From a virus (lineage: Duplodnaviria > Heunggongvirae > Uroviricota > Caudoviricetes), in IMG/VR virus record IMGVR_UViG_3300034104_004745, positions 1 through 64,000 of that record: 64,000 bases of DNA; one strand, 5' to 3'. Shown here piece by piece: positions 7,912 to 63,800 of the stretch. The notes beneath the pieces are model-generated. The model saw nothing but the letters and a program-made list of their open reading frames with translations. It was not told the DNA's origin and ran no database searches. Made by a program: the position numbers and the translations under genes. The first letter of the stretch is position 1. The number at the start of each line of letters is the position of its first letter.

Positions 7912-7917
7912 TGATAA

Positions 7918-7957
7918 ACAAAAAACCGGATGTTTATTCCGGTTCTAAGCTTTTTTT
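7918..7957. terminator. Bidirectional rho-independent terminator between convergent genes: AACCGGAtgtttatTCCGGTT, with T7 downstream on the plus strand and A5 upstream.
   Basis: 7-bp GC stem with T-runs available on both strands. Confidence 0.5.
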
Positions 7958-8328: not shown

Positions 8329-8330
8329 CT

Positions 8331-8831: not shown

Positions 8832-8840
8832 ATTATTATT

Positions 8841-43625: not shown

Positions 43626-43626
43626 A

Positions 43627-43923
43627 ATGGCTAAGAGTAAAACAAAAAAACCGTGGGTGGTTGACTCTATGTTTAGATTAGAAGCACCACAAAGTGCTAG
43701 TTTCATAAGCATACCAAATAATGGAACCTTTAAAGATTGTGAATGGTGTTTTCAATTTGATGATAGTGACCCATTTGTATTCGCATCAACAAAACCTTTT
43801 TATGATGGGAAAGACGCTAAAATAAGTTTCACACTTACAAACCAAACAAACACAAATTTGGTCTTTAAAGACTCTAATACCGGCAAAGAATTTAAAATAT
43901 TCGCAAGAGAAAAACAGTTATGA
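43627..43923 (+). CDS. Hypothetical protein (98 aa) within the glycan operon.
   Basis: ORF with tight coupling (1-nt gap upstream, 4-nt overlap downstream). Confidence 0.45.
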   Translation: MAKSKTKKPWVVDSMFRLEAPQSASFISIPNNGTFKDCEWCFQFDDSDPFVFASTKPFYDGKDAKISFTLTNQTNTNLVFKDSNTGKEFKIFAREKQL

Positions 43924-45069: not shown

Positions 45070-45072
45070 ATT

Positions 45073-46068: not shown

Positions 46069-46072
46069 GAAT

Positions 46073-46654
46073 ATGAAAAAAATAGAATTTATTATCCCAA
46101 CGTATAATAGACCAGATAAATTAATGGTTATGTTATCATCAATAAAAGCACAATCTGTTGATTTATGGAAAGTGCATGTTGTTGCTGATGCTGTATATGA
46201 TGGGTATCAAGAAATAAAAGATTACTTTAAAAATGATGAGAGATTTATATTCTCTGAATTAAATGGCCCACACAAAGATTGGGGGCACACAGCTAGAAAC
46301 TATGGCTTAGAAAGAGCAGAAGAAGACTGGGTGGTGATGTCTGGTGACGATAACTATTATGTACCAATTTTCGTTGAGGCTTTTTTAGAATCGATTAAAT
46401 ATAGAAAAGATGTTAACTTTGTTCATTGTAACTTAGTACACAATTGGATTAACAATGAATACATCGGGTTATTATCAAGACCTCAAGTAAATGGTATTGA
46501 TATTGGTAACTTTATGACTAAAACAAAATTTGCGAAACAGATGAGATTAGATGTTACTAAAGTAAACGCTGACGGTATCTTTGTAGAAGAATACCTAGAA
46601 AAATTTAAGGGTAACATTATTCACATTCAAAAAATATTATATGTCCATAACTAA
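46073..46654 (+). CDS. Glycosyltransferase family 2 (GT-A fold).
   Basis: N-terminal EFIIPTYNRPDKL is the canonical GT2 start. SGDDNYY region. Confidence 0.6.
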   Translation: MKKIEFIIPTYNRPDKLMVMLSSIKAQSVDLWKVHVVADAVYDGYQEIKDYFKNDERFIFSELNGPHKDWGHTARNYGLERAEEDWVVMSGDDNYYVPIFVEAFLESIKYRKDVNFVHCNLVHNWINNEYIGLLSRPQVNGIDIGNFMTKTKFAKQMRLDVTKVNADGIFVEEYLEKFKGNIIHIQKILYVHN

Positions 46655-47762
46655 CATAACATTCGTTCTTGCTGTACTTGATAAATTAGATTTAACTAAG
46701 AACTGTTATTCTAGAATACGAGATCTATATCCCACCACACCATTTGTTATAAGTAGTGGTGGTTCAAGTGATGGTACAAAAGAATGGTTGTTAGAAATGT
46801 CCGAGAAAGATGAGAACCTAACAATTTTTCATGATGATGATAGGTTAGCATTTTCAGAAACTTACAACTCAGGAATCAAAATGGTCGATACCGAAAAATT
46901 AGTTTTGATTCACAATGATATGGTTATTGGTGAGGGGTTTTTAGAAGCTATAGAAAGGTTATTAAAACCAAATATGATGTTATCCTATACAACAATAGAA
47001 CCACCAATTTTTAAAGGACATCAAAGACCCGGAAAGGTATTAATTGATTTAGGTTCATCGTTTGATGATTTTGATTATTTTAATTTCAATGCGTATGTTA
47101 GTACACATAACAATAACGATGTTCTATATGATGGCGCAGTTTTCTTTATGAGTGGTTACAAAAAGATGTTTGAAGATGTTGGTTTTTTTGATGGGTTTAG
47201 CTTTGTACCTTGTTTCTGTGAAGATGATGATTTCATAATCAGGGCTAAGTTAAAAGGATATGAATTAAAAACTTGTGAGTCCGCGATCGTATATCATTTT
47301 GTTTCCCAAACGTCTAGATTTAGCGAAGAGTTTAAGAAAAATAGAGTTACCCATGAGGTTTCATCTATTAGAAACTTCGTAAGAAAATGGGGGATAACTA
47401 TAACTGTCTTTAATGAGCTACGCTACTGGGAAGAAAAAGAATTTAAGTATAAAACATTTTCAATGGGATTAATTACAAGAAACAAAAAAAGATTAATGGA
47501 TCTTGAACCGTTTTTTGATAAGATTGATCTGGGTGAAATACCTGAAGAATATATTGAGAATGAGCAAAAAAGAACTAGATACGATATTAGATCTAAATTT
47601 ACATTAACAGATACTGTGGATGTTGTTATAACTGAGGTTGATGAATTTACTGATGAAGATCTACAGACATTACGTAGACTAAGATTATCTATACCATATT
47701 ATGAACCAGGTGAATACCAAATAGGTAATATGTTGATACAAATAAAAAAGGAGCTTAATTAG
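46641..47762 (+). CDS. Glycosyltransferase family 2-like protein (373 aa).
   Basis: FVLAVLDK...YNSGIK...LIHNDMV architecture like GT2. Weaker match than 46073..46654. Confidence 0.45.
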   Translation: MSITNITFVLAVLDKLDLTKNCYSRIRDLYPTTPFVISSGGSSDGTKEWLLEMSEKDENLTIFHDDDRLAFSETYNSGIKMVDTEKLVLIHNDMVIGEGFLEAIERLLKPNMMLSYTTIEPPIFKGHQRPGKVLIDLGSSFDDFDYFNFNAYVSTHNNNDVLYDGAVFFMSGYKKMFEDVGFFDGFSFVPCFCEDDDFIIRAKLKGYELKTCESAIVYHFVSQTSRFSEEFKKNRVTHEVSSIRNFVRKWGITITVFNELRYWEEKEFKYKTFSMGLITRNKKRLMDLEPFFDKIDLGEIPEEYIENEQKRTRYDIRSKFTLTDTVDVVITEVDEFTDEDLQTLRRLRLSIPYYEPGEYQIGNMLIQIKKELN

Positions 47763-47776
47763 CTCCTTCTTTTTTT
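47748..47776. terminator. Bidirectional rho-independent terminator AAGGAGCTtaattAGCTCCTT plus T7. It is embedded in the overlapping 3' ends of the convergent genes 46641..47762 and 47755..48237.
   Basis: Perfect 8-bp stem. T-run on the plus strand and A-run (T on the minus strand) on the other side. Both stop codons lie inside the hairpin. Confidence 0.6.
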
Positions 47777-48290: not shown

Positions 48291-49298
48291 TTATAAAACC
48301 GTCAAAATAGCATAAGTTAACATAAAAGATATCCATATAACTAAAGCTTTTAGATAAGTTAAAAATCCAGTATGAAAGTACTTTTGACCTATCGGTAAAC
48401 ACTTATGTGATGGTGAAATTAGATATGCTGAATACTCTAATGTAAAGAATAAAACAAAGTACTGCATACCAAACACACTAGTTAATAAACTAACAATACC
48501 TGCATATTTTGCTGATGATCCAAGTAAGAATGATGCTACGAATCCTAACACAGAAACAATAAGAATATTTGACGGTGTACTATACTGTTTGATTATTAAT
48601 TCAATTTGTGAATAATATGATCCAACTAGGTTACCAAGAATGATTACTAAAGCAACTATCCAAATCAATTCCCAGTTAACATAGCCCATCAACTTACCCC
48701 AACTCTTAGAGTGATATACCAACCATAGTGTGAACCCAGTAAAGAATCCAAAATAATAATCAGTAAAGAAAACACACATCATGATGGTAACCAAGAATGG
48801 TATAACCACAAGATATATGTTCTTCCAATTAATTGGATCATCTTTAACTTCAATATCGATCTCATCATCATCTAATGATAGTATATAATAACTGATATAT
48901 AATCCTGAGATTAATAACAACGGCCAGATATATGACATAAACTGCACGTAAGTTAAACTTAGTACAGCCATTGGTATAATAACTGTTTTCTCTAACGGTG
49001 ACCATAGATAATAATGATGTGTTGCAAGGTAATCAATGATACCAAACTTCTTACGTTTCTTATTATCGACTGGTGCAATACTATTCAGCATAGATGCTGA
49101 CAATGCTACACGACCAGGTATAGGTAGAATACCACCGAATAGTGATACTAAGAATACCACCATCTTTTTAGATTTAACTTTTTGTTTAAGTAATCTAAAG
49201 ATGTCCATAAGGTACCCTCTTTCTTTGAGGATACCGGTTACGAACATAATGAATATTAAGTAGACAAGAAACTCTTGTCCTTTGATTAAAATCTCCAT
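48291..49298 (-). CDS. Polytopic inner-membrane protein (335 aa, about 9-10 TM segments); Wzy/EpsG-like polymerase or transporter candidate.
   Basis: Multiple hydrophobic segments. Overlaps the start of the OMP gene by 13 nt. Confidence 0.55.
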   Translation of the reverse strand: MEILIKGQEFLVYLIFIMFVTGILKERGYLMDIFRLLKQKVKSKKMVVFLVSLFGGILPIPGRVALSASMLNSIAPVDNKKRKKFGIIDYLATHHYYLWSPLEKTVIIPMAVLSLTYVQFMSYIWPLLLISGLYISYYILSLDDDEIDIEVKDDPINWKNIYLVVIPFLVTIMMCVFFTDYYFGFFTGFTLWLVYHSKSWGKLMGYVNWELIWIVALVIILGNLVGSYYSQIELIIKQYSTPSNILIVSVLGFVASFLLGSSAKYAGIVSLLTSVFGMQYFVLFFTLEYSAYLISPSHKCLPIGQKYFHTGFLTYLKALVIWISFMLTYAILTVL

Positions 49299-50170
49299 GC
49301 AAATATAATTGTGGTTCTAGATAATTTTGCGTCTTGATTAAGTCCTGGCATGTGTTCAATATTTAAATAACCTTTGTTACTAAAACGATATTGAACTAGA
49401 GGACCAAGATACCATTCTTGTGAACCACCATCAAAGTCGTTGTATCTAAACATATGTGAAACACCTAATGTTAAATCATTATTAATGATGTTAGCATATG
49501 ATGCGGTGTATGCATATTCATCTTCACGAAGTTCTTTGTTTCTAGATAAATTACCTTCATAGATTGCGTTGAAGCCCCATATACCACTTTTACCAATTCT
49601 ATCACCTAATAATAATTTAGGTTCAATACCCCAGTGACCGTCTAACATTTTGGTTTCCCAATACAATGTAGGATTACCCCATAGTTTGCCCCAATCAGCT
49701 AAAGCGTATCGAAACTCCCAGGAGAATCCTCTCCATTTAAATTGTTTATCACCATTGTAACCATCATACACAGTGTGTGAATATAAATCTAATTGCAATC
49801 GTTTACCTAAACCAAATGTAAACTCATCTCTCATTCTTATTTGAGCTGGACCATTTCTTCTTTGTCTAATATCAAACCACTTCTCATACATTGCTGTACC
49901 TGGAGGATTCATTACGTAAACTCTTGTAGATGCAAACATTCTCATTGTAGTCCAAAGTGGTTGACCATAAGGACCGACTTTGGTCATCAATGGTACTTTC
50001 TTTGCTGTAACAACGATCTCTTGTAATTGATTAGGGACACTGTCCGTTTGAACTTTTAAGGATTGTTCTGAACCTTTCTGAATTGCGCTACTACTATACT
50101 GTCCAAATGACATAGTGGTAGTCAACAATGACACTAACATTAGCGATAGTGTTTGAATTGTTTTTCTCAT
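49286..50170 (-). CDS. Outer-membrane beta-barrel protein with a signal peptide (294 aa).
   Basis: MRKTIQTLSLMLVSLLTTTMSFGQ signal. EIVVTAKK plug-like motif. Alternating amphipathic beta strands. C-terminal ...IFAWRF ending in an aromatic residue. Confidence 0.55.
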   Translation of the reverse strand: MRKTIQTLSLMLVSLLTTTMSFGQYSSSAIQKGSEQSLKVQTDSVPNQLQEIVVTAKKVPLMTKVGPYGQPLWTTMRMFASTRVYVMNPPGTAMYEKWFDIRQRRNGPAQIRMRDEFTFGLGKRLQLDLYSHTVYDGYNGDKQFKWRGFSWEFRYALADWGKLWGNPTLYWETKMLDGHWGIEPKLLLGDRIGKSGIWGFNAIYEGNLSRNKELREDEYAYTASYANIINNDLTLGVSHMFRYNDFDGGSQEWYLGPLVQYRFSNKGYLNIEHMPGLNQDAKLSRTTIIFAWRF

Positions 50171-50237: not shown

Positions 50238-50903
50238 TTATTTACCAATTAAAAATATACCTAAACCATTCCAAAAATCATCTGGATCTTCACCAGATGT
50301 GAACAGTTGTCTTGAGTGTAAAATGAATAAATTATTTTCCTCAACAAACTTTTCAAACGCACCACTATCCCAGTTCCAATCATCCATTATTATGATTGTT
50401 TCTTTTGATATGATTGGTAGAATGTTTTTTAAAGCAATGTATTGATCATGAAATTTAGTTTCACCATCATAAAAAATAATGTCGGGATTTGGTAGTGTTT
50501 TAAAATCAAACAATTGATAGTCGGTTTTATAAACAGATATCTTATCAACGTCTCCAAATTTTTTTACGTTAGATAAAAATTCTTCTTGTGGTAACACATC
50601 GATATTGTGTTTATAGTAGTTCCCCATTTTTTGACTAACCCCGCGTGGTGTTAGATTGGGTGACATAAAATTATCAATTGCTATTGAGTAGATATCATTA
50701 CCATATATTGCAGAACAAAATGTTGCGCCACGAAAAACACCTATCTCTAGATAGGTTGCACCATCAATGTCACAAATATTATTTAGAAACGATCTAACTT
50801 TATTACTGGTGATTCCATGAATATCCAAAATGTCTTGAGTTAATTTTGATACTTCAAGTTTACCCCATTCAATTGAATCGTCTATATGTTTAACTAAGTC
50901 CAT
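50238..50903 (-). CDS. Class I SAM-dependent methyltransferase (Methyltransf_24/CmcI-like), paralogous in fold to 44518..45069. The start is re-called to the ATG at 50903; the track starts at a GTG.
   Basis: GATYLEIGVFRGATFCSAIYGNDIYSIAIDNF motif I region. Confidence 0.55.
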   Translation of the reverse strand: MDLVKHIDDSIEWGKLEVSKLTQDILDIHGITSNKVRSFLNNICDIDGATYLEIGVFRGATFCSAIYGNDIYSIAIDNFMSPNLTPRGVSQKMGNYYKHNIDVLPQEEFLSNVKKFGDVDKISVYKTDYQLFDFKTLPNPDIIFYDGETKFHDQYIALKNILPIISKETIIIMDDWNWDSGAFEKFVEENNLFILHSRQLFTSGEDPDDFWNGLGIFLIGK

Positions 50904-51927
50904 ATGATTTTTTCTTATGATCTGCAACAATATCACAGTAATTACAATCCCAACATTGGAATTTACATTTCTTTATTTTATTTCTCCAACCCTTAAGTTC
51001 TTCGTGTGGTATACCATCCAAATATATCTCAGATGTTTTAGATAAAACACTTTTACCCGCAGCGTACGAATCAACAATCTCCATAGTTTCATCTAATCGA
51101 TTGAAGCTATCTCTACCATGCATTTTGAATACATCAATATATTCTAAGAATTCGTCAAACTCTTCTTTGAATGGTGGTATAGTTCCTGTCTTAAAAAAGA
51201 AAGCATTAATATCTTTCTCCCATTTGTGTTCACAAGTTACTTTAGAGATCTCGTGATGAAAGTATGGTAACTCATTATTAGTTCTAAGATTGTTATATGA
51301 ATAATGTTCATCCATGACTGGGCACCTTCCTAAACAACCTTCATTAACTAGTAATGATATTTTTACATATCTACCTTTCTCTTCGTAATATTTTAACTGA
51401 GCTCTTTTGATATTTTTTAATTCTTCAACATCTCTCATTAAAATCCTATCAAGATTAATGTAATCAAATCCTTGATCGGCGTTATACCAAAAGTCTTGTC
51501 CAGTTGCCACTTTTCTTAATATGGTATTTTTAATTTCCATCTCTGGAAAATGTTTCTTCAATCCCATTGCAACCCAATGACCATGTGGAATAGTTATACA
51601 TCTTAAACCCTTTTCGTATAAAGGTTTTAGATTATCAATAAACAATTTATAGTTATCGAATCTAGGAGAAACGTTTATGTTGTTGAATGTTGCACTGATG
51701 GAGATACCTAATGCTTTTTGAATGATCATTGCATTATCAAACACAATGTCTCTGTCTTCATCTCTGAACACCGCACCCATCGCATCTTGTGTAAATGGTG
51801 GGACTCTACAGGTAAAATAAATGTCATATATCCATTCCTTATTTCTTTCTAAGAACGGATAAAATTTATTCATGAACATATCTTCCGACATCATCGGATT
51901 AAGTGGTATAGAGAATATCTTTTTCAT
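50890..51927 (-). CDS. Cys-rich protein (345 aa) with a C-terminal CKFQCWDCNYC cluster; possible Fe-S or zinc partner of the adjacent radical SAM enzyme.
   Basis: EGCLGRCP and CKFQCWDCNYCD motifs. 1-nt overlap with the radical SAM gene. No canonical CxxxCxxC. Confidence 0.5.
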   Translation of the reverse strand: MKKIFSIPLNPMMSEDMFMNKFYPFLERNKEWIYDIYFTCRVPPFTQDAMGAVFRDEDRDIVFDNAMIIQKALGISISATFNNINVSPRFDNYKLFIDNLKPLYEKGLRCITIPHGHWVAMGLKKHFPEMEIKNTILRKVATGQDFWYNADQGFDYINLDRILMRDVEELKNIKRAQLKYYEEKGRYVKISLLVNEGCLGRCPVMDEHYSYNNLRTNNELPYFHHEISKVTCEHKWEKDINAFFFKTGTIPPFKEEFDEFLEYIDVFKMHGRDSFNRLDETMEIVDSYAAGKSVLSKTSEIYLDGIPHEELKGWRNKIKKCKFQCWDCNYCDIVADHKKKSYGLS

Positions 51928-52928
51928 TATTTGTTACCTTCTAGACATCCACCACATATACCATTACAATCGCTCTTATAAAAGACACAATCTAAACAGT
52001 CTTGCGGTATAGTATAATTTTTATGATTATCGGTGTAAAGTTTATCAAACTCATCCCTTAAATCTAATATACCACTTTTAGCTGATATTTCCAAAACATT
52101 ATCAATCTTTACCTTATCTTGTAGTGGATAACAATGAATTGAACTTCCATCCGGGAAGACATCCAGTGGCATAAATCCACATATAGTATCATATTCAGGG
52201 ATTTTAAATGTTGCAAAGTTCAAAGAATTTTCTAAAACAGCTTTCTTTGTTTTACCCTCCCATAAACATGGCGGAACTTGACAATCTGAAGTGATCTTAA
52301 TACCGTTATATAAGCCGAATTTAAGGATCTTAGTAATCTCTGCACCCATTTCCCTATTATTGATAAGATAGGTCCCTGTGAGGTCTAATCCGACCCTTAT
52401 TGCGTTTATTTTACCATCAAGCTCGTGGTATAACCATTTGATGTATTCATAGAAGTTTCTATCCTTCCAATCTTTGGACATCGTTACAGCTAAATAAAGT
52501 CTAGGATTAGTATCAAACCCCCAGGTATTGGCATATGCTTTGTAAATTTCTAGGTAGTTCTTTTTAAATAAAACTATTCTATTTTTTTCATTAAGCTCTG
52601 CAGCATTAGGAAACACCCAGCGGATATTTTTGATATTTTCTATTAGATAATCTCTTGTTGTTTTACTAAACAAAAAATTACTAACAAGATTCACCTTAAT
52701 ATTTTTAGAAAAGAGGTGATCCAAAATACCAATAAAATTTGAATGCTGTGTTGGTTCCCCACCTAGAATTGTTATTTCTTCTTGGGGTGATTGTAAATTA
52801 TAATGGTTGATAAGTTTATCAACCATTTCTATTGACATTTCGCCTAAGGTATGTTTTAGTCTTGCGTCTTCTTTGGTGAAGCAGAATGAACATCCTTTAG
52901 CACATGTACCATTAATTGCTAAATTCAT
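51927..52928 (-). CDS. Radical SAM enzyme with a C-terminal SPASM-like Cys-rich domain.
   Basis: CAKGCSFC (C-x3-C-x2-C), the GGEPT SAM-binding motif, and C-terminal CLDCVFYKSDCNGICGGC. Confidence 0.75.
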   Translation of the reverse strand: MNLAINGTCAKGCSFCFTKEDARLKHTLGEMSIEMVDKLINHYNLQSPQEEITILGGEPTQHSNFIGILDHLFSKNIKVNLVSNFLFSKTTRDYLIENIKNIRWVFPNAAELNEKNRIVLFKKNYLEIYKAYANTWGFDTNPRLYLAVTMSKDWKDRNFYEYIKWLYHELDGKINAIRVGLDLTGTYLINNREMGAEITKILKFGLYNGIKITSDCQVPPCLWEGKTKKAVLENSLNFATFKIPEYDTICGFMPLDVFPDGSSIHCYPLQDKVKIDNVLEISAKSGILDLRDEFDKLYTDNHKNYTIPQDCLDCVFYKSDCNGICGGCLEGNK

Positions 52929-52938: not shown

Positions 52939-53679
52939 TTAGAAATCCATTCTCAATGTAAGAGGCGTTGTTGAAACGTTCTCGTCCTCTTTTTGTTGTT
53001 TACTCATTGCTACACCAAACTTCTCGTGTTTCAGTCTATGACAATCAGCGATAGTTTGACAAGCTTTAATTCTTTCTTCTAATAATTGTTGTTCCAATAG
53101 TAAGTTAGCTAACTTGGTATTGTAGTCTGTCACATTATTAATAATTTTTTGAACGAACGTGGCTTTATCTATCCCTCTACCTGTTGATAATATATCGATG
53201 ATTGGTGTTTGATAATCACTATCAGCAACCCAACCAAACGCTTCTCTCTTTTGTTCTTCCCATGTATCTTTTTCTAACATAGAAGCATCTACCATTAATT
53301 CTCTATATCTTTCAGAAAATCTATCAGCAACAAGTTTCTTCATAACCGCTTTATTAAAAGCAACACCGGCCGCTCTGTCTTCATCAGTCAAATAATGTTT
53401 AACTTTTTCTTCATCTGTTTCGCCAGATTCAGCTAACTGAGGAATCTCATCCATGATGTGTGAATTGGTTCTAACACTAATATAATCTTTGTAGATATCA
53501 GCGAATACAAAACCTTTAGCCACTTCTTCTGGAATAACAGCAGCGCCAAGTCGATTAAGTTCAACTCTCATATCATTATATTCATCAGCGATTTTACCAT
53601 AGTTGTAATTTAAATACATTCCTACAATTTGAATGTAGCCTGGTACGTTACCCTGTAGTTTAAAAATTATATGTGTCAT
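52939..53679 (-). CDS. Hypothetical protein (246 aa) in the tail-fibre module.
   Basis: ORF. Confidence 0.5.
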   Translation of the reverse strand: MTHIIFKLQGNVPGYIQIVGMYLNYNYGKIADEYNDMRVELNRLGAAVIPEEVAKGFVFADIYKDYISVRTNSHIMDEIPQLAESGETDEEKVKHYLTDEDRAAGVAFNKAVMKKLVADRFSERYRELMVDASMLEKDTWEEQKREAFGWVADSDYQTPIIDILSTGRGIDKATFVQKIINNVTDYNTKLANLLLEQQLLEERIKACQTIADCHRLKHEKFGVAMSKQQKEDENVSTTPLTLRMDF

Positions 53680-54440
53680 TATAATAGTTTTTCAGTTTCA
53701 ATATTATTTGAATTATCTAATCTTAATTGATTTTTTAATGATTCTTCAATTGAGAAATTATTTGTTGTTGCTTGTGTCATCAAGTGATTGATGTTTCTAT
53801 CAATTGATATTGTATATGCAGATGCTAAACTTAAAACTTGTTTCTGTTGTTCTGGATCCATCATAAGAATCGAATCTAAGTTACCTGTTCCAATTCTACC
53901 ATATGAAATCATATCAAGCATAGCTTGTTTAGCCATACGAACTGTCCAATACTCATGCTCAAATTTTTCTTCTAGTTCTGGATTACCAAACACATCAATT
54001 AATTTTGTCCCATCCGGAAGAATTGCTGCTTCTGTTTCTAAAAATTCTTTAATTAAATCAATAAACCCTTGTCTTTCTCTGTATGCGTCTTTTAGATTTC
54101 TCTTAAACTTTCTTAAGTCAATAAGTTTATCAGCAACAGTTAAATCAACCATTTCTTTTCTTTTTGGGTCAGTAATAAATTCTTTACTTTCCTCATCCAT
54201 TTGAATTTCAAGTTCAGCTTTTCTTACTGTATATTCAAGGTGTTCAACAGCGTCCTCTCTACCTCTTAATTCCAATAACCACTGTTTTAATTTAGCATAT
54301 GACGTTATTTGTGCTCCACCAACGAAATTATATGCTTTGTACTTTGGTAGTGCAAAAGACATACTTTCTGAAATCTTCATTAATTTTTCATCAAACGGGT
54401 TGTTTAAATTTTGTTCTCTGTCATATTTGTAACCTTCCAT
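53679..54440 (-). CDS. Hypothetical protein (253 aa). The start is re-called to the ATG at 54440; the track start at 54488 is a TTG.
   Basis: The ATG at 54440 is preceded by TATATTATACAAAAAC, a copy of the start-proximal motif. Confidence 0.5.
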   Translation of the reverse strand: MEGYKYDREQNLNNPFDEKLMKISESMSFALPKYKAYNFVGGAQITSYAKLKQWLLELRGREDAVEHLEYTVRKAELEIQMDEESKEFITDPKRKEMVDLTVADKLIDLRKFKRNLKDAYRERQGFIDLIKEFLETEAAILPDGTKLIDVFGNPELEEKFEHEYWTVRMAKQAMLDMISYGRIGTGNLDSILMMDPEQQKQVLSLASAYTISIDRNINHLMTQATTNNFSIEESLKNQLRLDNSNNIETEKLL

Positions 54441-54488
54441 AAATAAATTGTTTTTGTATAATATAAGTAAAATATTTCGTATTGTCAA

Positions 54489-55604
54489 CTATTGCCTCCA
54501 ACCACAGTGCCCTGAAGATGTTCCAGCGTTAACTGCTGGATTTAACCCAGTCACACTAGAAGTACCGGTATCCGCAGCATAGTAGAACTTCCAACTAACA
54601 TTGTTTTGACCACCCCCATCATAACAACCCAACATATACTGCCAATCTTGTCCCAACGTAAAGTTTTCTTCACCACAGTTAGGATGAGGTTTAGATACAT
54701 TCCCAATATTAGTATCGTTAGCATTGCTCCATCTTCTTAAATTATATCCTCCATTATAACTTCCCTCATTACCACAATATCCCTTTCCATGTTTGGAACT
54801 AATACCTTTTTGTTGTGCATGCGCACCCCATTGAGTAGATGATGTTGGGGTTTCATTTGAAAAATTAAATTTTATTCCAGCAGATGTTGTCCACGCATAC
54901 CCAAAATTTTCATCGAAAAATGCACCACCACCATCAGAACCATTAATTGATGTTACACCAAACCCACTTACATAACTTTCATTTGTAAGATTAAATTTTT
55001 CTATTGTGGTCGATCCTCCCGAAATTAGATAAGCCATTTCAGTTTCTTTTTGCATGGTTGCAACGTCACTTCTAGCAATACCCGTATTGAATTTTGTTTG
55101 ATGTGCATAATTTGTATCTGTCATCATATTAATTGCTGATGTCCTTGTACCATGAACACTATCGGGGCCCTTCCACGCACCATCATCATTAACCGACCAT
55201 TGAAAGAAAATATTTTTACTACAAGCACCAGATGTATATGATATAGGGTAATCTAATATTTCACCAATATGGGTTGTTTGATCAATAAGATTCACTGTTT
55301 TGTGTACGTTTTTCCATGGTGAAGCGTCTTTATAACCGCCAGCTAAATAAGAATAATTAATCACTTGTCTATATCTGAAAGCTGTTGGTTGTGTTTCTTG
55401 GGCAGCGATTCTTTCCCAACCGTTATCAATATTTGATACACCAGTATAAAGCATTAAATAACTACTTCCACTAGTTGATGTTTCAAGGTATAATGAACCT
55501 GAACGAGGGTTTGATGGTCTGTTAGCTCTAGTACCTCTAGGAGGTCTATTAACAACTCTATCTGACCTTAAACTACCGCTTACTTCTAAATTCTCGTATA
55601 ACAT
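54489..55604 (-). CDS. Adhesin-like tail-fibre tip protein, paralog 1 of 3 (371 aa; conserved N-terminus SGSL...PRG.R.NRPS.P..GSLYLE and C-terminus GHCGWRQ).
   Basis: About 60-70% identity to the two downstream paralogs. Sits directly 3' of the long tail-fibre gene. Gly-rich, with many N-x-S/T sites. Confidence 0.65.
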   Translation of the reverse strand: MLYENLEVSGSLRSDRVVNRPPRGTRANRPSNPRSGSLYLETSTSGSSYLMLYTGVSNIDNGWERIAAQETQPTAFRYRQVINYSYLAGGYKDASPWKNVHKTVNLIDQTTHIGEILDYPISYTSGACSKNIFFQWSVNDDGAWKGPDSVHGTRTSAINMMTDTNYAHQTKFNTGIARSDVATMQKETEMAYLISGGSTTIEKFNLTNESYVSGFGVTSINGSDGGGAFFDENFGYAWTTSAGIKFNFSNETPTSSTQWGAHAQQKGISSKHGKGYCGNEGSYNGGYNLRRWSNANDTNIGNVSKPHPNCGEENFTLGQDWQYMLGCYDGGGQNNVSWKFYYAADTGTSSVTGLNPAVNAGTSSGHCGWRQ

Positions 55605-55618
55605 ATTATATTTTTATT

Positions 55619-56725
55619 TTATGATCTCCAACCACAATGGCCTGATGATGTTCCTCCATTTACTCCCGGCGCTAATCCGCTTACACTAGTAGTTCCAGTA
55701 TCAGTTGTGTAAGAAAACTTCCAACTTGTATTATTTTGTGCGCCATCATAATTTCCTAACATATATTGATGATCTTGCCCCATGGTAAAATTTTCTTCTC
55801 CACAGTTTGGATGTGGTTTTGAAACATTACCAATGTTAGTATCATTCGCGTTGCTCCATCTTCTTAGATTGTAACCCCCAGCATAACTACCCTCATTACC
55901 TGCATATCCTTTACCAACCTTAGAACTAATACCCTTTTGTTGAGAATGTGCTCCCCACATTCCAGTTGATGTAAATGTTTCGGAAGCAAAACTAAATTTT
56001 ATACCTGCCGCAGACGTCCACCCATAACCAAAATTTTCGTCAGAAAATGCCGAACCACCATCAGAACCATCAATTGTTGTTAAGTTGAACCCAGTCATTA
56101 TCGTTTCATTACTTAAATCAAACTTCTCAACAGTTGAGCTACCTCCAGTAAACATATATGCAAATTCTGTTTCTTTATGCATTGTACCTAAATCACTTCT
56201 ATTAGACGTGGTATTGAATCTAGCACTGTGAGCATAATTTGTGTCATTAGCCATATTAACCGCCGATGTTCTACTACTATGTACATCTCCGGGACCTTTG
56301 AATGTGTTGTCAGTGTTAACTGACCACACAAAGAAAATATATCTACTACAAGCTCCCGATGTATAAGATGCTGGATAATCCAATAACTCACCAATGTGTG
56401 ATGTTTGGTCTGTGGAATTTATTGTTTTATGTACGTTTTTCCATGGAGAAGAATTCTTATATCCACCAGCAAGATATGAAACAGCAATAATTTGTCTAAA
56501 CTTAAAACCAACATTAGAATTAACTTGTGAGGAAACTCTAACCCAACCATCGTCACCATTACTTAGTCCAGTATAGACCATAAGAAAACTACCACTAGCC
56601 GCTTCTTCAAGATACAAAGATCCTGTGACGGGGCTTGATGGCCTATTCCCTCTTGATCCTCTTGGTGGTTTCGATACACCTTGAACTCTTAAGGAACCAC
56701 TAATTTCTATATTATCGTGACGCAT
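55619..56725 (-). CDS. Adhesin-like tail-fibre tip protein, paralog 2 of 3 (368 aa; ...GHCGWRS).
   Basis: Tandem paralog. Confidence 0.65.
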   Translation of the reverse strand: MRHDNIEISGSLRVQGVSKPPRGSRGNRPSSPVTGSLYLEEAASGSFLMVYTGLSNGDDGWVRVSSQVNSNVGFKFRQIIAVSYLAGGYKNSSPWKNVHKTINSTDQTSHIGELLDYPASYTSGACSRYIFFVWSVNTDNTFKGPGDVHSSRTSAVNMANDTNYAHSARFNTTSNRSDLGTMHKETEFAYMFTGGSSTVEKFDLSNETIMTGFNLTTIDGSDGGSAFSDENFGYGWTSAAGIKFSFASETFTSTGMWGAHSQQKGISSKVGKGYAGNEGSYAGGYNLRRWSNANDTNIGNVSKPHPNCGEENFTMGQDHQYMLGNYDGAQNNTSWKFSYTTDTGTTSVSGLAPGVNGGTSSGHCGWRS

Positions 56726-56743
56726 ATTTTATAAATACTATTT

Positions 56744-57877
56744 TTAATTTCTCCAACCACAATGGCCTGATGATGTTCCCCCATTTACCCCAGGAGCTAA
56801 TCCAGAAGGATTAACAACACCTGTATCTGTTGCGTAAACAAATTTCCAGCTTGTGTTATTTTGTAAACCATCATAATTTCCTAACATATATTGGTGGTCT
56901 TGTCCCATAGTAAAGTTTTCTTCCCCACAGTTTCCATGTGGCTTTGCTACGTTACCAATATTGGTTTCATTAAACACATTCCATCTTCTCAAATTATAAC
57001 CACCATTATAATTCCCCTCATTTCCAGCATATCCTTTACCCCATTTGGAACTAATACCTTTTTGTTGACCGCTAGCACCCCACTGTTGGTTATTTGTAAA
57101 TGTGTCTGTTGCAAAATATAATTTGTTACCACTTTCCGACCCGTAACCATATCCATAATTTTCGTCTGAAAATCCAGAAGCACCTAATGAACTGGTAATA
57201 GATGTTTTTAATGTTAAGTATGGTTGCATATTAGGATAATATACACTATACATAACTTCATTAGTTAAATTGAATTTTTCAACTGTGGCCACACCACCAC
57301 CAAATACCCACGCAAATTCTGTCTCTTGAAATAATGTTCCAAGGTCATCCCTAGCGTTTGCTAAATCCCATTTTGATTGGTGCGCATATGCGGTTTCATT
57401 AACCATATGAACCCCAGTTGTCCAAGTTGAATGTATTTGTGTTGCCGATTTCCATGCGCCATCCGTATTAGTTGACCAAACAAATAATATAGATTTACTA
57501 CAAGCTCCGGATGTATACGATGCTGGATAATCCATTAATTCACCTAAGTGAACTGTTTGATCTGTCGCGTTAGTTGTTCTATGAACATTTTTCCAAGGAG
57601 AAGAATCTTTATAACCGCCAGCCAAGTATGAAAAGTTAATAATTTGTCTATATAAAAAACCAATTCTATCTGTATTTTGTGAGCCAACAGGTTCCCATCC
57701 ATCATCTCTATTTGATGCGGCTGTGTATGTAACAACAAAACTTCCACTGCTAGATTCTTCAAGATAAAGAGACCCTATTTCTGGGCTAGATGGTCTATTA
57801 GCTCTTGGCCCTCTAGGTATTATATATTGTCCACTAACATCTAAAGAGCCACTAACAATTACATTTTCTCTTAACAT
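56744..57877 (-). CDS. Adhesin-like tail-fibre tip protein, paralog 3 of 3 (377 aa; ...GHCGWRN).
   Basis: Tandem paralog with a divergent middle segment (VMYSVYYPNMQPYLTLKTSITSS). Confidence 0.65.
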   Translation of the reverse strand: MLRENVIVSGSLDVSGQYIIPRGPRANRPSSPEIGSLYLEESSSGSFVVTYTAASNRDDGWEPVGSQNTDRIGFLYRQIINFSYLAGGYKDSSPWKNVHRTTNATDQTVHLGELMDYPASYTSGACSKSILFVWSTNTDGAWKSATQIHSTWTTGVHMVNETAYAHQSKWDLANARDDLGTLFQETEFAWVFGGGVATVEKFNLTNEVMYSVYYPNMQPYLTLKTSITSSLGASGFSDENYGYGYGSESGNKLYFATDTFTNNQQWGASGQQKGISSKWGKGYAGNEGNYNGGYNLRRWNVFNETNIGNVAKPHGNCGEENFTMGQDHQYMLGNYDGLQNNTSWKFVYATDTGVVNPSGLAPGVNGGTSSGHCGWRN

Positions 57878-57894: not shown

Positions 57895-60800
57895 TTATCC
57901 GGTAACAACAAGTCTTCCTGTTCTATTTGCAGCAAAAGTTACTGTAACAGTTGTTGATGTTATGTTTATTTCAGAAGGGAAGAACATATTATCACTACTA
58001 TCAAATACTTGGGCAGTTAAATTCGCTGTTCCTAAATTATGTGTAAAGCTAACGCTCGATACGTTTGAGAAAGTTGTTGAATTACTCATTGCCACTCTCT
58101 TCCATGATGCCCAGGTTCCATTGTTTTTCCCTCTAACATACATTATACCAGTTCTATAATCGCCATAAATTTGATGTTGCCAACTTGAACTATATATTTG
58201 TGAATATAATGCACCGTCTGTTGAGTTACCTGTTAAATTAGTTGAACTACCGTCAACGTTAGTTACATACGTTGTACCATTAGAATCTAACGTATTGGCA
58301 TTTACACCGGAAGTATTAGTATTTCTAAACCCAATACTATCAATTTGATCTGCGGTTGTTGCGCTTGTTGCGTTACCTGAAAATGTTGTTGCTGTTATAG
58401 TTCCGCCAGCAACTGTTAAATTACCCGCAATCCATACATTTCCTGTATTTCCATGTACCGCCATGTTTGTGGATCCATTACCTACAAAGACGTATTCATT
58501 TGGGTTAGTACTATTTGACCAAATATTACCTGGGCCACCAGTACCGTTGGTTCCATATTGAGCACCACTATTTCCAGCCCAAAATAATCCCCAACCATTA
58601 TTACTACCAGGTGTACCGGCCACATTCACCATCCATCCAGAATAATCTTGACTAAATCTAAATGGTGCAAAATTATCGCCACTACCGGTACTACCTACAT
58701 ATCCACTTATATACCCCGCGGACATTAATAAGTTACCACTAAATGTTTTATTTCCTCCGATTGTTTGGTCACCAGTTGTATAAACACCATTTGTTACTGT
58801 GGACGCATTACCAGAAAGTGCTCCCGAAAACGTTGGGGCAGTTACAGTACCAGGGAAAGATGTGTTACCACTAGCATCTAATAATGTTGCGGTTCTTGTT
58901 AAAGTAGAGAACGTTCCAGAATATTGTCTAACATGTATTGGTTCAGTAGCATCATCGGCTGTTGCGATTTCAACAAATCCAGAGTTTGATGCACCACCAA
59001 CTCTAATTCTAAAGAAGTCGTTGTCTGCTATTGTAGAATATAATAAATTAGCTTCACTACCTGCAGATACTGTTCTAATAACTTCGGTTGCGGTTGCAGC
59101 ATTACCAGTTGTATTCTGATTACCCGCGGTGTTTACCCCTGGTAAATCAATATTTGCTGAACCATTAAATGAAACACCACCTATGTTTCTTGCTGTGGCT
59201 AATATTGTTGCGGTTGCGGCGTTACCTGTTGTGCTTTGGTTCCATGTTGGAATATTACCCGCGTGATAAACCACGTTACCACCATATGTTAATGCGCCTG
59301 TACTTGCTCTACCTAAAGCTGTTGTATCACCATTACCAAAAACAATATAACCATTAGCAGCATTTTGCACACCCTGTATTCTAAATGTGTTGGCTGCATT
59401 TATATCTCCAATCCAAACATCATCACCAATTCTAAAGTTGGTACCATTACCATTATTACTTGTAATAACTTGATCAAATGTTGGGGCAGCAGTTGTAGCT
59501 ACTGATTGACCTATTGAAACTGTAACTGAACCGGTTGTTGTATCAACACCAACACCAGTTCCTGCGTTAACTGCAGTTACTTTCGCTGCGGTATATGCTG
59601 TACCAATAGATGAACCATTCCAAGTTCCAGAACTAATTGTTCCAGAAGAAACTGTTAATCCATTTATTGTACCTGTAACAACTAAGTTACCTGTGGCACT
59701 TTGTAGTGTCATTAATTCAACAGAACCGTTGGAATACCAGCCAAATTTAGGTGTGTTTCCAGTATTTGAATAAGCAGCCAAATTTGGTATATGCATCGAT
59801 AACGTTCTATTCGCAATATCGGAAGCTAATCCCATACCGTATGCTCCTGAACTTGCACCTCTCGCACCGAAACCGTACATGTACCAATCGGCAGTTGCAC
59901 TATTAATTATATTAGCACTAAATGTTTTTGTTCCACCAATTGTTTGATCACCGGTTGTATAAACACCATTTGTTACTGTACCCGCATTACCATCAACAGA
60001 AACACCTGTTAAAGTTTGAGATGCTGATGCTCTACCTAATGATATTGACGTTGTACCAATATTAAAAGATGAGTTTGCTAATTTAGTATTACTAACTGAC
60101 CCATCTACTAATTGAGATGCGTTAATTGTTTTGTTTGTTAACGTTTGGCTTGCGGTTCTTAATACAATATCATCTTCAGAGCCTAATGGGCCTGCGATCC
60201 ATTTATCATTAGAAGTGTCCCACAATAAAGATCCTGAAGTTAATGTTGACGCTGTTGCATCTCTAACAACAAGACCTGCATTTGTTGCGCCAGTACCATT
60301 TAATTGAATAATATTATCTGCAATATTAACAGTTGTCGAGTTTACGGTTGTTGTTGTTCCAGAAACTGTAAAGTTTCCTCTAACTGTAACATCTGCACCA
60401 CTTAAACTAAACGCACTATTAAATGAACTAGTAAATGTATTTAAACTACTTGTTGCTGTATTAATAGCATTGATAGCTGTTGTGTTAGAACTAGTGTAAC
60501 TATTTAAACTACTTGTTGCAGTATGAATTGCATTTATATTTGTAGTGTTACTACTTGTGTAACTGTTTAAACTTGCAGTTGCTGTATGAATTGCATTGAT
60601 ATTAGTTGTATTAGAACTAGTATATGAATTCAATGATGCTGTAGTGGATTCAATTGCACTTAATCTTCCACTTGCACTACTTGTAAATGTATTTAATGAA
60701 CCAGTACTTGTTTCAATTAAACCTAATCTAGTATTTTGAGTTGAATTGGTTGTGTTATTAGAACTTGTATATGAATTAAAATCTGTTCTAATTGATCCAC

Positions 60801-63800
60801 TAGCACTTTCAAGAGAATTTAATCTACTATTTGCACTTGATGTAAATGTATTTAAACTTCCAGTGCTTGTTTCGATTGAACCTAATCTGTTATTTGTACT
60901 TGATGTATAAGTGTTTAAAGAAGACGTTGTTGATTCAATAACACCAAGTCTTGTGTTTGTGCTTGAAGTATAACTGTTTAAAGAACCTGTTGATGTTTCA
61001 ACATTTCCTATTCTTGTAACAGCGTTATTGAATTCAGTTTCTCTAACAATTCTTTGCTCAGATCCTAGCTGACCCGCAATCCAATAATCATTACTTGCAT
61101 CCCATAATAATGAACCAGATACTTGATTTGGGCCTGTAGTATCTTTAACTCTTAAACCAGCATTGGTTGCACCAGTACCGTTAAGATTAATTAAATTGTT
61201 GTCAACATCTAATGTTGTTACATTAACGTTTGTTGTTGTTCCTTTAACTAATAAGTTACCTTTAACTGTTAAATTAGAACCAGTTAATTCTATTGCTGTT
61301 AATACCGAAGAAGAGAAGTTATTTAAGCTTCCTGTTGCAATTTGAATTGCCGTTATATTTGGACTTGATATGTTTTGAGTAACAGCAAGTGTTCCTGTAA
61401 TTTCAGTATTTGAATTAATTGAAACTTTAGTTCCTGTATCAGTTATATTACTATCACCAACGTGTTCATCGATAGTTGATTTAACTAATCTATTATTTGT
61501 TAAATGAATTTCATTACCAATATCATTGTAGGTTTCGGGACCCATTATTAATAATGCCGATGTTACAGATGATTGATTTTGATGAACAAATATCCATTCG
61601 TTCTCGGTAGCATCAAATAATAATGAACCGGACACTTGTGGACTAGAACCACTATCGATAACAGCAAGCCCACCGAATCTTACTGCCGGATTTTGTGCGT
61701 TTACTGTAATGATGTTATCTGCAATATTAACTACTGACGAACTAATGTGCTGTATCGATGATGAACCAGCAACTATTAAATCCTGTGAAATATATAATGA
61801 TCCTGTTATTGTTTGATTACCAATAAAAATATTTGATCCAGTTGTTGCGTAGCTTCCGGTTTTTCCTTCAATAGAACTAAGTCTATTGTCTTGTCCAGCA
61901 TCTGTTGTTGCTAAAGAAGAACTAAATGTTGAATAACCTGTTGTATTTGATAATGTAACTTGTGCAGAACCAGAAATAATATTCTCAGCATTCAATCTAT
62001 CCTTAATTGTTGTGTTAATTGAATTTGTGAAAGAATTTAATGATGCTGTTGTAGACTCAATTGTATTGAATCTTGTATTTGCACTACTAGTATATGTGTT
62101 TAATGAACCTGTTGTCGATTCTATAGTACCTAATCTAGTATTGTTACTACTTGTATAAGAATTAAGACTACTAGTAGATGTATGAATAGCATTTATAGTA
62201 CTATTTGTACTAGATGTATATGAATTAAAGTCGGTTCTAATACTACCACTAGCCGATTCTAAAGAATTTAATTTACTATTCGCACTAGATGTGAATGTAT
62301 TTAAACTACCAGTTGTTGATTCTATAGTACCTAATCTAGTACTATTGCTGGATGTATATGAATTAAAGTCGGTTCTAATACTTGAGCTAGCAGATTCTAA
62401 AGAATTTAATCTACTATTCGCACTGCTTGTAAACGAATTTAAAGAACCTGTTGTAGATTCTATTATACCTAATCTACTATTATTTGAAGATGTATAACTG
62501 TTTAATGAACTTGTAGTAGATTCTATTACACCTAACCTACTATTATTAGATGATGTGTAACCGTTAAAATCACTTATAATACTTGAACTAGCAGATTCTA
62601 AAGAATTTAATTTACTATTTGTACTAGACGTAAAACTGTTTAAACTACCAGTTGTAGTTTCAATAACACCTAATCTTGTATTATTACTAGCTGTATATGA
62701 ATTTAAACTAGCGGTTGCTGTTTGAATACTAGATGCTCTGGAATCTATTGAAGTTGAAAACGTATTGTATTCATTAACTAATATAATTCTTTCTTCGCTA
62801 CCTAATTTACCAGCTTTCCAATTATCTGTTGCACTATCCCAAAGTAATGATCCGGAAATAATACTAGCACCACTAGCATCTTGAACAACAAGGCCGGCAT
62901 TACTTGCTGCTGTTCCATTTAATTGAATAATATTATCACCAATATTAAGTGTTGTTGAATCAATTTGTGTTGTTGTTCCTTTAACTAATAAGTTACCTTT
63001 AACTGTTAGATTAGATCCAGTAATTTCTACCGCGCCTAATACTGAAGAACTAAATGTATTTAAACTACTTGTTGCAATATGAATTGCATTTATATTAGCT
63101 ATATTTGAACTGGTGTAAGAATTAATACTACCAGATGTGGTTTCTAACGCACTTAACTTATCATTTTGTGTTGTATTTGTTGTAGCATTACTAGATGTAT
63201 ATGAATTAAAGTCAGTTCTAATACTACCACTAGCACCTTCAAGAGAACTCAATCTACTATTTTGGGTAGTATTTGTTGAATCGTTTGAAGAAGTATAACT
63301 ATTGAAATCTGTTCTTATACTACCACTGGCACTTTCTAGAGAGCTTAATATACTATTCGCACTACTAGTAAAACTATATAGTGACGATGTTGAAGATTCT
63401 AATGAATTTAATTTTCCATTAACACTACCGGTAAATTGCTCGATTGAACTTGTAAAAACATTTAAAGATCCACTACTTGTTTCTAAAGCGGAAACTTTAT
63501 TGTCGTTTGAAGATGTATATGTATTGAATACTGTTTCATCTAATTTACCTGTCCCAATTGGTTGTCCATTTAAAGACATTGATCCTGTTATATCAACAGA
63601 ACCTGTAACAGATAATGAACCACTTATTGTTTGTAAACCAGTAAGTGAATTAGATCCAGTTGTCGCTATTCTAGCTGGATCAATGTAAACCACACCTCTG
63701 TCAGCTTCAAGATTTAATATGTCAGAAACTACAGAGATACTACTACCCATACCAGGATGAGCAGTACAATAATAATATAGGGTTGATGGTGTACTATCAG

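Follow-up and report, generated by a model that had tools for sequence, protein, structure and literature searches.

Three consecutive genes located directly downstream of a long tail-fibre gene code for paralogous proteins in which a short N-terminal module (N-module) precedes a predicted six-bladed Kelch-type propeller. On balance, we favour the view that they serve the long tail fibre as accessory proteins, none of them redundant with the others, and that their propeller heads would bind the host surface. Indirect evidence makes fibre-associated binding heads the best reading, since the paralogs follow the fibre gene, share the N-module and carry a head that ends fibres elsewhere, and since a homolog is co-expressed late. 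Little is understood of how T4-like cyanophages of marine and fresh waters, and large phages related to them, recognise their hosts, and the genes that come after long fibres are mostly annotated as 'hypothetical'. The widespread family to which the three proteins belong, T4-GC351 or phrog_1417, has so far been described only as 'hypothetical' or 'sericin-like'; our analysis provides it with a fold, a likely role, a position as C-terminal fibre head and a map in which blades 5, 6 and 1 are conserved and blades 2 to 4 are variable.

Three paralogs with a shared N-module and propeller

Within the window (the whole 64,000-nt stretch of phage DNA that was analysed), region 54489-57877 consists of three intact genes, all on the minus strand, whose coordinates in our ORF calls are exactly those of the initial annotation. 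The copies are numbered here in transcription order, P1 being the fibre-proximal one; numbering by ascending window coordinate turns P1 into 'paralog 3'.

57895..63750, minus strand: gene of the long fibre (1951 aa) with a repetitive, coiled-coil-like shaft; the string as visible in the window begins with it
56744..57877, minus strand: P1 (slot 1), 377 aa, N-module and six-bladed Kelch-type propeller, phrog_1417 E = 1e-46
55619..56725, minus strand: P2 (slot 2), 368 aa, the structure-modelled copy
56531..56665, minus strand: N-module of P2, residues 21-65 (PRGSRGNRPSSPVTGSLYLE...YTG...GW)
55622..56482, minus strand: propeller domain of P2, residues 82-368
55625-55639, minus strand: closing strand of P2 (HCGWR), residues 363-367, predicted to complete blade 1
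54489..55604, minus strand: P3 (slot 3), 371 aa

The pairwise protein identities of 65% (P1-P2), 61% (P1-P3) and 69% (P2-P3) agree with the 60-70% first estimated for three genes of about 370 aa, and the mean column identity of the three-paralog alignment is 79%, a likeness far beyond chance. At the DNA level, the repeats are the paralogs themselves (65-76% identical, period of 1125-1152 nt). Conserved termini and blocks in the pairwise alignments confirmed that these are true paralogs, and the internal blocks and C-terminal GTSSGHCGWR quoted in the initial annotation are present in all three. The expectation that the centre would diverge, most of all in paralog 3, was borne out for the centre (alignment columns 136-270) and for the outlier gene, 56744..57877, but this gene is the first copy in transcription order, P1, which also carries an extra 9-aa insertion in the loop between blades 3 and 4. 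A megablast search of 50,697 phage records with the region returned zero matches, and PHROG scans of 20 further window genes gave no taxonomic placement for the phage.

In the structure predicted for P2, six antiparallel blades of four strands each surround a central axis. Without strand 363-367 (HCGWR), which comes after blade 6, blade 1 would be left with three strands (82-86, 97-102 and 107-113), an order suggesting that HCGWR closes the ring by joining the N-terminal blade. Of the Kelch sequence motif (a hydrophobic strand with GG, then Y and W), the GG is seen after the B strand of blades 1 (87-88), 3 (194-195) and 5 (283-284); blade 6 has D-G, and in blades 2 and 4 the GG is missing. Pfam and NCBIfam searches assigned no family to any of the three paralogs, Kelch_1-6 included (Pfam E ≤ 1), and PDB sequence searches with the family profile or with P-SSM4 gp032 gave nothing meaningful. 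Rather than being specific attachment signals, the internal blocks and the C-terminus correspond to the propeller scaffold and its closing strand. We also considered GHCGWR as a radical-SAM/sulfatase-type modification motif and dropped this candidate because the strand closes the propeller, the Cys lies outside the family-wide conserved residues and cyanophage cassettes lack a radical SAM gene.

Blades 5, 6 and 1 display a patch of polar and aromatic residues that all of the family has conserved; the family-wide conserved polar set comprises K264, K269, E310, E311, N312, Q317, Q330, N332, S360 and S361, and the conserved residues also include W95, Y89 and Y121. In the model, the patch could be a ligand pocket common to the family, putatively on the BC/DA face, or else an interface for assembly. 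Such a polar set would also suit an enzyme, which speaks against a pure binding head. The propeller would then be a catalytic head carried on the fibre, of glycan hydrolase, lyase, esterase or mutarotase-like type, that alters or breaks down a host surface polymer, an explanation to which we assign little weight. Differences among the paralogs are concentrated in blades 2 to 4, where P1 is the most divergent, and these blades may give each binding head its own specificity. The assignment of propeller faces, and with it the putative binding face, was deduced from topology.

P1 and P3 contain stretches equivalent to the N-module of P2, and within the window the motif is confined to the three paralogs. 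It aligns with the N-modules of S-SM1 gp044-047 and P-SSM4 gp028, gp030, gp031 and gp032; it is divergent, reading GSLYLEE in the window phage versus G.IRYNT in cyanophages. Among PDB profile matches, phage tail proteins come out best, with marginal E values of 0.12-0.22, a weakness of the binding-head reading; a literature look-up for PDB code 9D83 ('Gp49') produced nothing relevant. We propose that the small N-module, the type of which also occurs in tail proteins of phages, probably docks the protein to the fibre or to a tail protein next to it, and that it is followed by a short linker and then by the propeller closed by its own C-terminal strand. The propellers would be made late, from the same gene string as the fibre, and then incorporated into the virion, where the heads would bind host surface structures, most plausibly glycans.

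Copy number, age and selection

All 70 complete related arrays contain exactly three copies in the same order. The dS values between paralogs, 1.0-1.9, indicate that the triplication is ancient. Among orthologs, dN/dS is 0.03-0.15 with the variable loops included, each copy being under strong purifying selection, and mosaicism is absent. A repeat comparison of the region found no near-identical repeats, inversion repeats or template/variable-repeat pairs, the sole inverted match being 33 nt long at 76% identity.

These results run counter to the initial annotation, which had seen in the array a signature of receptor-binding protein diversification with possible phase-variable receptor use and had suggested looking for copy-number variation among relatives. 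A multivalent adhesin cassette comparable to gp38, whether diversifying actively or phase-variable, would fit tandem paralogs with a variable centre placed after a fibre gene; given the fixed copy number and order, the dS and dN/dS values, the repeat comparison and the absence of gp38 homology and fold, we regard it as very improbable. As the triplication is old and purifying selection acts on all three copies, the array points to a stable three-part tip rather than to a fast-evolving or switchable set. The very low dN/dS and the lack of mosaicism are unusual for receptor-binding tips and weigh against our preferred reading of the proteins as binding heads.

A distant lineage, L092, also has exactly three copies, which share 52-61% identity with each other and 39-44% with the window paralogs. 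Since its copies are closer to each other than to those of the window, L092 appears either to have reached three copies independently or to have homogenised them. The exact number of three in two lineages is a new observation and raises the possibility of an obligate heterotrimer, in which P1, P2 and P3 would associate one-to-one through paralog-specific N-termini into a three-headed tip on a trimeric fibre, with blades 5, 6 and 1 as the inter-subunit or fibre interface and blades 2 to 4 facing outward. The invariant count and order, the strong constraint on every copy and the N-terminal enrichment of paralog-specific fixed sites (14 of 36 within the first 81 residues, 22% of the length) are consistent with such an assembly. 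However, only one propeller per locus occurs in cyanophages and in the fibre-fused versions, indicating that homo-oligomers work, the N-module genes after cyanophage fibres number two to five, not a multiple of three, and two lineages make for weak statistics. We consider the heterotrimer possible but unlikely.

Relationship to long fibres and to known tail proteins

The position of the array directly after the long tail fibre was confirmed: P1 is separated from the 1951-aa gene by a 17-nt gap in a tightly packed string. Pfam detected only coiled-coil-type and weak BppL_N matches in the fibre, and relatives carry versions of 2177 to more than 3900 aa at the same locus. A search of the coding strand ahead of the genes found no T4-type late promoter (TATAAATA).

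A PHROG profile search assigned the paralogs to phrog_1417 with E values of 1.3e-46 (P1), 1.8e-45 (P2) and 5.5e-39 (P3), over profile positions ~135-440 of 464, and BLASTP against P-SSM4 gp032 gave E values of 8e-35 to 2e-21 at 28-34% identity. T4-GC351 (e.g. P-SSM4 gp032, P-HM2 gp098 and S-RIM12 gp038) has a homologous propeller with an N-module upstream, and in both groups the gene comes after a long fibre gene with partners GC352, GC353 and GC354 downstream. Syn19, Syn33 and S-ShM2 carry the family as well. Cyanophages encode one T4-GC351 copy per genome with a longer N-terminal extension (389-464 aa), whereas in the window phage there are three copies, each specialised, GC354 is split and a radical SAM gene has been added. 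The database name of T4-GC351, 'sericin 1 precursor-like protein', stems only from its Ser-rich composition; literature searches for 'sericin' with cyanophage found no papers, and those for Kelch with phage tail fibre no relevant one. In other phages, the same propeller is fused to the C-terminus of tail-fibre proteins of 700-2400 aa. A 130-aa insertion in the L089 relative had no Pfam match.

In P-HM2, the propeller homolog is transcribed in the Late E cluster with fibre, sheath and capsid genes, and its three partner genes are grouped with terminase and portal in another late cluster, Late D. The three cyanophages with proteomes in Sullivan et al. 2010 (PMC3037559), S-SM1, S-PM2 and Syn9, are all devoid of T4-GC351, and the 2023 and 2025 cyanophage virion-proteome papers hold no data on the family. 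The only pointers to a virion protein are indirect ones, the N-module relatives S-SM1 gp044 and gp047 and the late co-expression in P-HM2.

The gp38 adhesins of T2, T6 and S16, to which the initial annotation had likened the array, resemble the paralogs in being encoded immediately after the distal long-fibre gene and in the proposed seat at the fibre tip. Sequence and fold are unrelated: the receptor-binding domain of gp38 is a polyglycine-rich sandwich as opposed to the predicted Kelch propeller, and neither Pfam nor PHROG returned a gp38 match. Sets of several receptor-binding proteins, such as CBA120 TSP1-4 and G7C gp63.1/gp66, are encoded by consecutive genes that combine different heads with conserved N-terminal docking parts; their heads are β-helix tailspike enzymes, unlike the propellers described here. 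TSP3 of CBA120 gave a weak match to the N-module profile (E = 0.12), with the motif at the TSP3 C-terminus and not in a docking domain.

Eukaryotic and poxviral Kelch domains (KLHL17, KLHL12 and Keap1) share only 12-15% identity with the paralogs, which lack BTB/BACK domains and Pfam Kelch matches and for which we propose an extracellular virion context instead of a ubiquitin-ligase adaptor role. Several Kelch-type propeller genes also cluster in the large genomes of jumbo phages (CBB_550/552/554 and 'virion structural proteins' of PhiPA3, Noxifer and Phabio; BFVD matches), and at least one of the proteins, CBB_552, was detected in the virion by mass spectrometry (PMC5259590). The likeness is at the fold level only (12-16% identity): the jumbo-phage proteins match Pfam/InterPro Kelch repeats, have no N-module or GC352-354 and are not reported beside a long fibre. 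In staphylococcal phage receptor-binding proteins and Brochothrix phage NF5 gp18, a five-bladed propeller 'platform' is the part of the trimeric tail protein that binds the receptor (PMC12917162). That platform, with one blade fewer than the window propellers, lies between stem and tower domains in siphophage baseplate proteins.

A conserved partner cassette downstream of the propellers

The gene string continues downstream of P3 with the following features.

53679..54488, minus strand: GC353 homolog, ~253-269 aa, helical, phrog_1409; BLASTP to P-SSM4 gp034, E = 9e-28
52939..53679, minus strand: GC352 homolog, 246 aa, phrog_1604; BLASTP to P-SSM4 gp033, E = 2e-20
51927..52928, minus strand: radical SAM protein, 333 aa, PF04055 E = 5e-9
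50890..51927, minus strand: U32-like TIM-barrel protein, 345 aa, invariant Cys clusters, equivalent to the N-terminal half of T4-GC354
50238..50936, minus strand: SAM-dependent methyltransferase (Methyltransf_24/YrrM-like), equivalent to the C-terminal half of T4-GC354
48291..50170, minus strand: 294-aa signal-peptide protein and DUF401 membrane protein (ORFs and profile matches)
47744..47772, no strand assigned: terminator-like hairpin, strong and bidirectional

The GC353 homolog probably starts at Met17 (54440), and gene calls for its counterparts in relatives give 253-254 aa. For the two partners of 253 and 246 aa, searches of PDB sequences returned only noise. The U32-like and methyltransferase genes are fused in most relatives, and the radical SAM gene lies within the cassette only in the window clade (L004, L089 and L091). 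A propeller gene placed after a long fibre gene and followed by GC352, GC353 and GC354 homologs was found in the window, L004, L089, L091, P-SSM4, S-RIM12, P-HM2, L092, L094, L095 and L098. In all eight lineages, the propeller is accompanied by the two ~250-aa proteins, the U32-like enzyme and the O-methyltransferase. This strict linkage, observed here for the first time, is unaccounted for by a simple adhesin. The four-part module moves as a block, being present in P-HM2 and missing from its sibling P-HM1 (PMC3037559, Table S5).

Such cohesion would also suit a propeller that is no part of the virion and works intracellularly with the cassette's enzymes (U32-like Fe-S, methyltransferase and radical SAM) and its two ~250-aa proteins, either as a substrate-recognition subunit or scaffold of a modification pathway, Kelch domains being classic substrate adaptors, or as a fibre-assembly chaperone like T4 gp38. 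We judge this improbable, as a propeller fused distally to very long fibre proteins is difficult to square with an intracellular adaptor and, in P-HM2, the propeller is expressed with major structural genes in Late E, apart from its partners in Late D.

Returning to the binding heads, the linkage and the recurrent triplets could point to fibre-tip maturation chemistry or to heterotrimeric tips. More speculatively, the propeller might be the client of a dedicated maturation system, in which the partners, joined by the radical SAM enzyme in this clade, would install a post-translational modification (e.g. hydroxylation then O-methylation) or otherwise assemble the head, with a heterotrimeric tip in this clade; we hold this combination to be improbable. 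If true, it would amount to an enzymatically matured receptor-binding tip; if the genes are merely linked, they would represent an ordinary set of accessory tail proteins. Fusion of the propeller to the fibre makes no difference to the presence of the partners. The hairpin at 47744..47772 is the probable end of the minus-strand gene string, and in distant relatives DUF401 recurs downstream of the cassette.

Gene string and predicted fold

The ends of three intact open reading frames coincide exactly with the limits initially annotated for the triplication (54489-57877), and every conserved motif quoted there was found in their products, P1 to P3 in transcription order after the long fibre gene:

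56744..57877, minus strand: P1, intact ORF, 377 aa
55619..56725, minus strand: P2, intact ORF, 368 aa
54489..55604, minus strand: P3, intact ORF, 371 aa

Pairwise identities are 65% (P1-P2), 61% (P1-P3) and 69% (P2-P3). A repetitive fibre gene (1951 aa) stops 17 nt upstream of P1, the paralogs are separated by 18 and 14 nt, and eight more same-strand genes, closely spaced or overlapping, follow P3 until the minus-strand string ends at a strong terminator-like hairpin at ~47.75 kb. The most divergent part is indeed the protein centre, with one outlier, but this outlier is the fibre-proximal P1, which also has a 9-aa insertion there; calling it paralog 3 holds only in ascending-coordinate numbering.

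Searches of P1-P3 against Pfam and NCBIfam gave no match. PHROGs assigns all three to phrog_1417 ('unknown function'), and they are members of this cyanophage family (T4-GC351). A Kelch fold is predicted for P1-P3; their sequences match no Pfam Kelch profile. In the predicted model of P2, a small three-stranded N-module (residues 21-65, pLDDT 80-88) precedes a six-bladed propeller (residues 82-368), with low confidence at residues 1-15 and 66-78. The strand order of the predicted propeller suggests these blade limits:

residues 82-113 plus C-terminal strand 363-367: blade 1
residues 124-168: blade 2
residues 180-216: blade 3
residues 225-254: blade 4
residues 263-302: blade 5
residues 313-345: blade 6

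Under this assignment, the conserved C-terminal GHCGWR is the predicted ring-closing strand, and the blocks SYLAGGYK..SPWKNVH, GKGY.GNEG.Y.GGYNLRRW and NCGEENFT.GQD.QYMLG.YDG fall in B strands and BC and DA loops of blades 1, 5 and 6, where they would form scaffold and one conserved surface rather than attachment signals.

Conservation of the triplet

All 70 complete related arrays recovered from viral and metagenomic contigs contain three copies in an invariant order, P1-type in slot 1, P2-type in slot 2 and P3-type in slot 3. Identity is 65-100% within one slot (mean 84-88%) and 53-74% between slots. Paralogs differ by a dS of 1.0-1.9 with dN/dS of 0.13-0.29, and orthologs with unsaturated dS have dN/dS of 0.03-0.15 in every region, the blade 2-4 loops included. 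No near-identical repeats, inverted repeats or template/variable pairs were found. The fixed copies and order, the dS, the low dN/dS and the lack of repeat or template/variable features therefore show the triplet to be ancient, fixed and constrained. The cassette proposed initially is scarcely credible: the ordered arrays, ortholog dN/dS and paralog dS speak against active diversification, and the missing repeats and template/variable pairs against phase-variable use.

Conservation is unevenly distributed over the predicted propeller. In the BC and DA loops of blades 5, 6 and 1, 78% of columns share the same majority residue across the three types (within-type entropy 0.22), compared with 36% (0.49) in those of blades 2-4. 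Of 36 paralog-specific fixed sites, only 5 lie anywhere in blades 1, 5 and 6, 17 anywhere in blades 2-4 and 14 in the N-terminal 81 residues. Across the superfamily (82 representatives, ~30% identity), a Gly and aromatic scaffold is conserved along with a polar set (K264, K269, E310 (100%), E311, N312, Q317, Q330, N332, S360 and S361), all in blades 5, 6 and 1. From propeller topology, we read this set as one probable conserved patch, a shared ligand pocket or assembly interface, and the second half of the propeller as variable, differing between paralogs. An obligate heterotrimeric tip made of the three paralogs is a possible but unlikely arrangement; that the propeller is a fibre-borne enzyme seems improbable.

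In the 261-kb contig L089, the P1-type slot-1 copy (7325-8854) is 509 aa long, with a ~130-aa beta-rich domain inserted within the N-module after GSLYLE; this domain had no match in Pfam and by eye looks like a carbohydrate-binding jelly-roll. Such an insertion reveals a degree of modular plasticity. Exactly three tandem copies (375, 358 and 357 aa) also occur in a far more distant lineage (L092, 1-4898); they are 52-61% identical to each other versus 39-44% to the window paralogs, and therefore reflect independent triplication or within-array homogenisation. The N-modules in L092 are of the canonical cyanophage type, and the upstream fibre gene there has a C-terminal SDERLKDV...coiled-coil tail that looks like an S74 intramolecular-chaperone domain. 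In a 99% identical viral contig (L009, at 4554-4715), slot 2 is followed by a gap of ~160 nt, and the slot-3 copy matches the family model from position 82 on only; the cause is a frameshift, a misassembly or a genuine loss of the N-terminus.

Probable association with the long tail fibre

An exhaustive profile search over 1.84 billion cluster representatives returned only 221 relatives. The propeller ends ≤25 residues from the C-terminus in 82/82 relatives with a complete domain, six of which are long proteins (711-2368 aa) that bear CBM_5_12, Ig-like or TIG domains and, over their N-terminal portions, match PHROGs of tail fibres (phrog_9851, E 6e-282; 17885, 5073, 5342, 693 and 23676). In the T4-like cyanophages P-SSM4, S-RIM12 and P-HM2, a T4-GC351 homolog lies just 3' of a very long fibre gene; these proteins, annotated as 'sericin 1 precursor-like' or hypothetical, are 28-34% identical to the window propellers. 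T4-GC351 is absent from the cyanophages with published virion proteomes. Other large phages also have Kelch-type propellers, among them the proven virion protein CBB_552.

The N-module pattern P-x-G-x3-RP-x2-P-x2-G-x-L/I...Y-x-G-x2-W occurs within the window only in P1-P3, and the module aligns with the N-termini of several post-fibre cyanophage genes whose C-terminal domains differ. Two such relatives, S-SM1 gp044 (T4-GC347) and gp047 (T4-GC1428), gave 32 and 25 peptide counts, respectively, in purified virions (PMC3037559 Table S8). Against the PDB, the top three matches of the N-module profile were CBA120 tailspike 3 and a 'Gp49', with clear motif correspondence and marginal E values (0.12-0.22). 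During P-HM2 infection, fibre gp096, gp097 and the Kelch homolog gp098 belong to the 'Late (E)' transcript cluster with g13-g16, g18, g19, g22 and g23, and the genes of the three downstream partners to 'Late (D)' with g17 and g20 (PMC5082946 supplement). The best-supported mechanism, which we hold to be somewhat probable, is that P1-P3 are specialised propeller heads, kept as a stable set, that are borne on the fibre and bind host surface structures. The gene position is that of gp38, as first proposed, but neither the sequence nor the fold, a Kelch propeller, is gp38-like. The resemblance of P1-P3 to multi-RBP sets that share docking modules at their N-termini, and to Gram-positive phage RBPs with propeller heads, is one of logic only.

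Other head domains occur on cyanophage genes with the same N-module, such as P-SSM4 gp030 and gp031 (6478-8522 of that locus, L001). By eye, gp030 has a fibrinogen-like stretch (GYYWIQP...YCYVDCDNYDGGWVCVM), and gp029, from the same row of genes, matches CBM_4_9 weakly. Such varied heads suggest a general design behind cyanophage fibres, 'N-module plus interchangeable lectin-like head'. Elsewhere in the window (24316-27414, minus strand), a 1032-aa protein with an M23-type metallo-endopeptidase domain (~residues 170-295) matches tail-lysin and tape-measure-associated peptidase PHROGs and is a candidate tail-associated cell-wall hydrolase.

Linked enzymes and neighbouring genes

The same partners follow the propeller-ending gene in 8/8 informative lineages (the window clade, P-SSM4, S-RIM12, P-HM2 and contigs L092, L094, L095 and L098), whose propellers are just ~30% identical and fibre-fused in two. 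They are two ~250-aa proteins, T4-GC352 and 353 (phrog_1604 and 1409), and T4-GC354, the best conserved of all (42-48% identity). T4-GC354 is divided in the window between two genes, one for a 345-aa protein and one for a methyltransferase, and ahead of both a radical SAM gene is inserted:

50238-52928, minus strand: cassette genes, radical SAM, then U32-like TIM-barrel, then YrrM-like O-methyltransferase

The U32-like protein has seven invariant cysteines and its gene overlaps that of the methyltransferase; the two are fused into one protein (T4-GC354) in cyanophages and in many relatives from metagenomes. P-HM2 carries the four-gene block, which its co-isolated sibling P-HM1 lacks (PMC3037559 Table S5). 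The constancy of the linkage suggests that the partners may be functionally tied to the head, in maturation, modification or assembly. The pair resembles the U32-family hydroxylase and YrrM of the bacterial TrhP/TrmR (yrrMNO) tRNA ho5U-to-mo5U pathway, so that the enzymes are perhaps unconnected with the fibre; by this analogy they may form a phage hydroxylation-methylation module for nucleic acid or protein. That the propellers themselves act inside the cell together with these enzymes is improbable. The fold and the proposed role for a widespread 'hypothetical' cyanophage family, the recurrent number three and the enzyme linkage merit an experiment; no result here overturns current understanding.

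Further enzymes surround these loci. In L004 (44-2248), a related locus, genes for a 2OG-Fe(II) oxygenase and another radical SAM protein lie immediately upstream of the long fibre gene, a position that corresponds to sequence beyond the right end of the window. The cassette is flanked by 2OG-Fe(II) oxygenases and tryptophan halogenases in L094, L095 and L098, and the fibre locus is thus consistently ringed by redox enzymes. The fibre gene string is met at its end by a convergent plus-strand glycosyltransferase cluster (41011-47762; two phrog_2170, two GT2 domains) that includes a nucleotide-sugar epimerase and may serve surface glycans or DNA glycosylation; at this place L004, L089 and L091 also have UDP-galactopyranose mutase-like and epimerase genes. 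The last genes of the string (48291-50170, minus strand) encode a 294-aa signal-peptide protein and a DUF401/TIGR00529 membrane protein. DUF401 also lies downstream of the cassette in the distant relatives L094 and L098, where the settings include a cyanophage-like one with genes for heme oxygenase and bilin reductase.

Many minus-strand genes, P2 included, have an octamer (minus-strand reading) ~4-5 nt 5' of the ATG:

2361, 9627, 11930, 18086, 27419, 56730, minus strand: positions of TATTTATA upstream of gene starts

This octamer could serve the phage as a promoter or as a signal for translation initiation. The leaders of the fibre gene and P1-P3 are AT-rich without a Shine-Dalgarno sequence, and together with the octamer they hint that the host does not depend on SD pairing.
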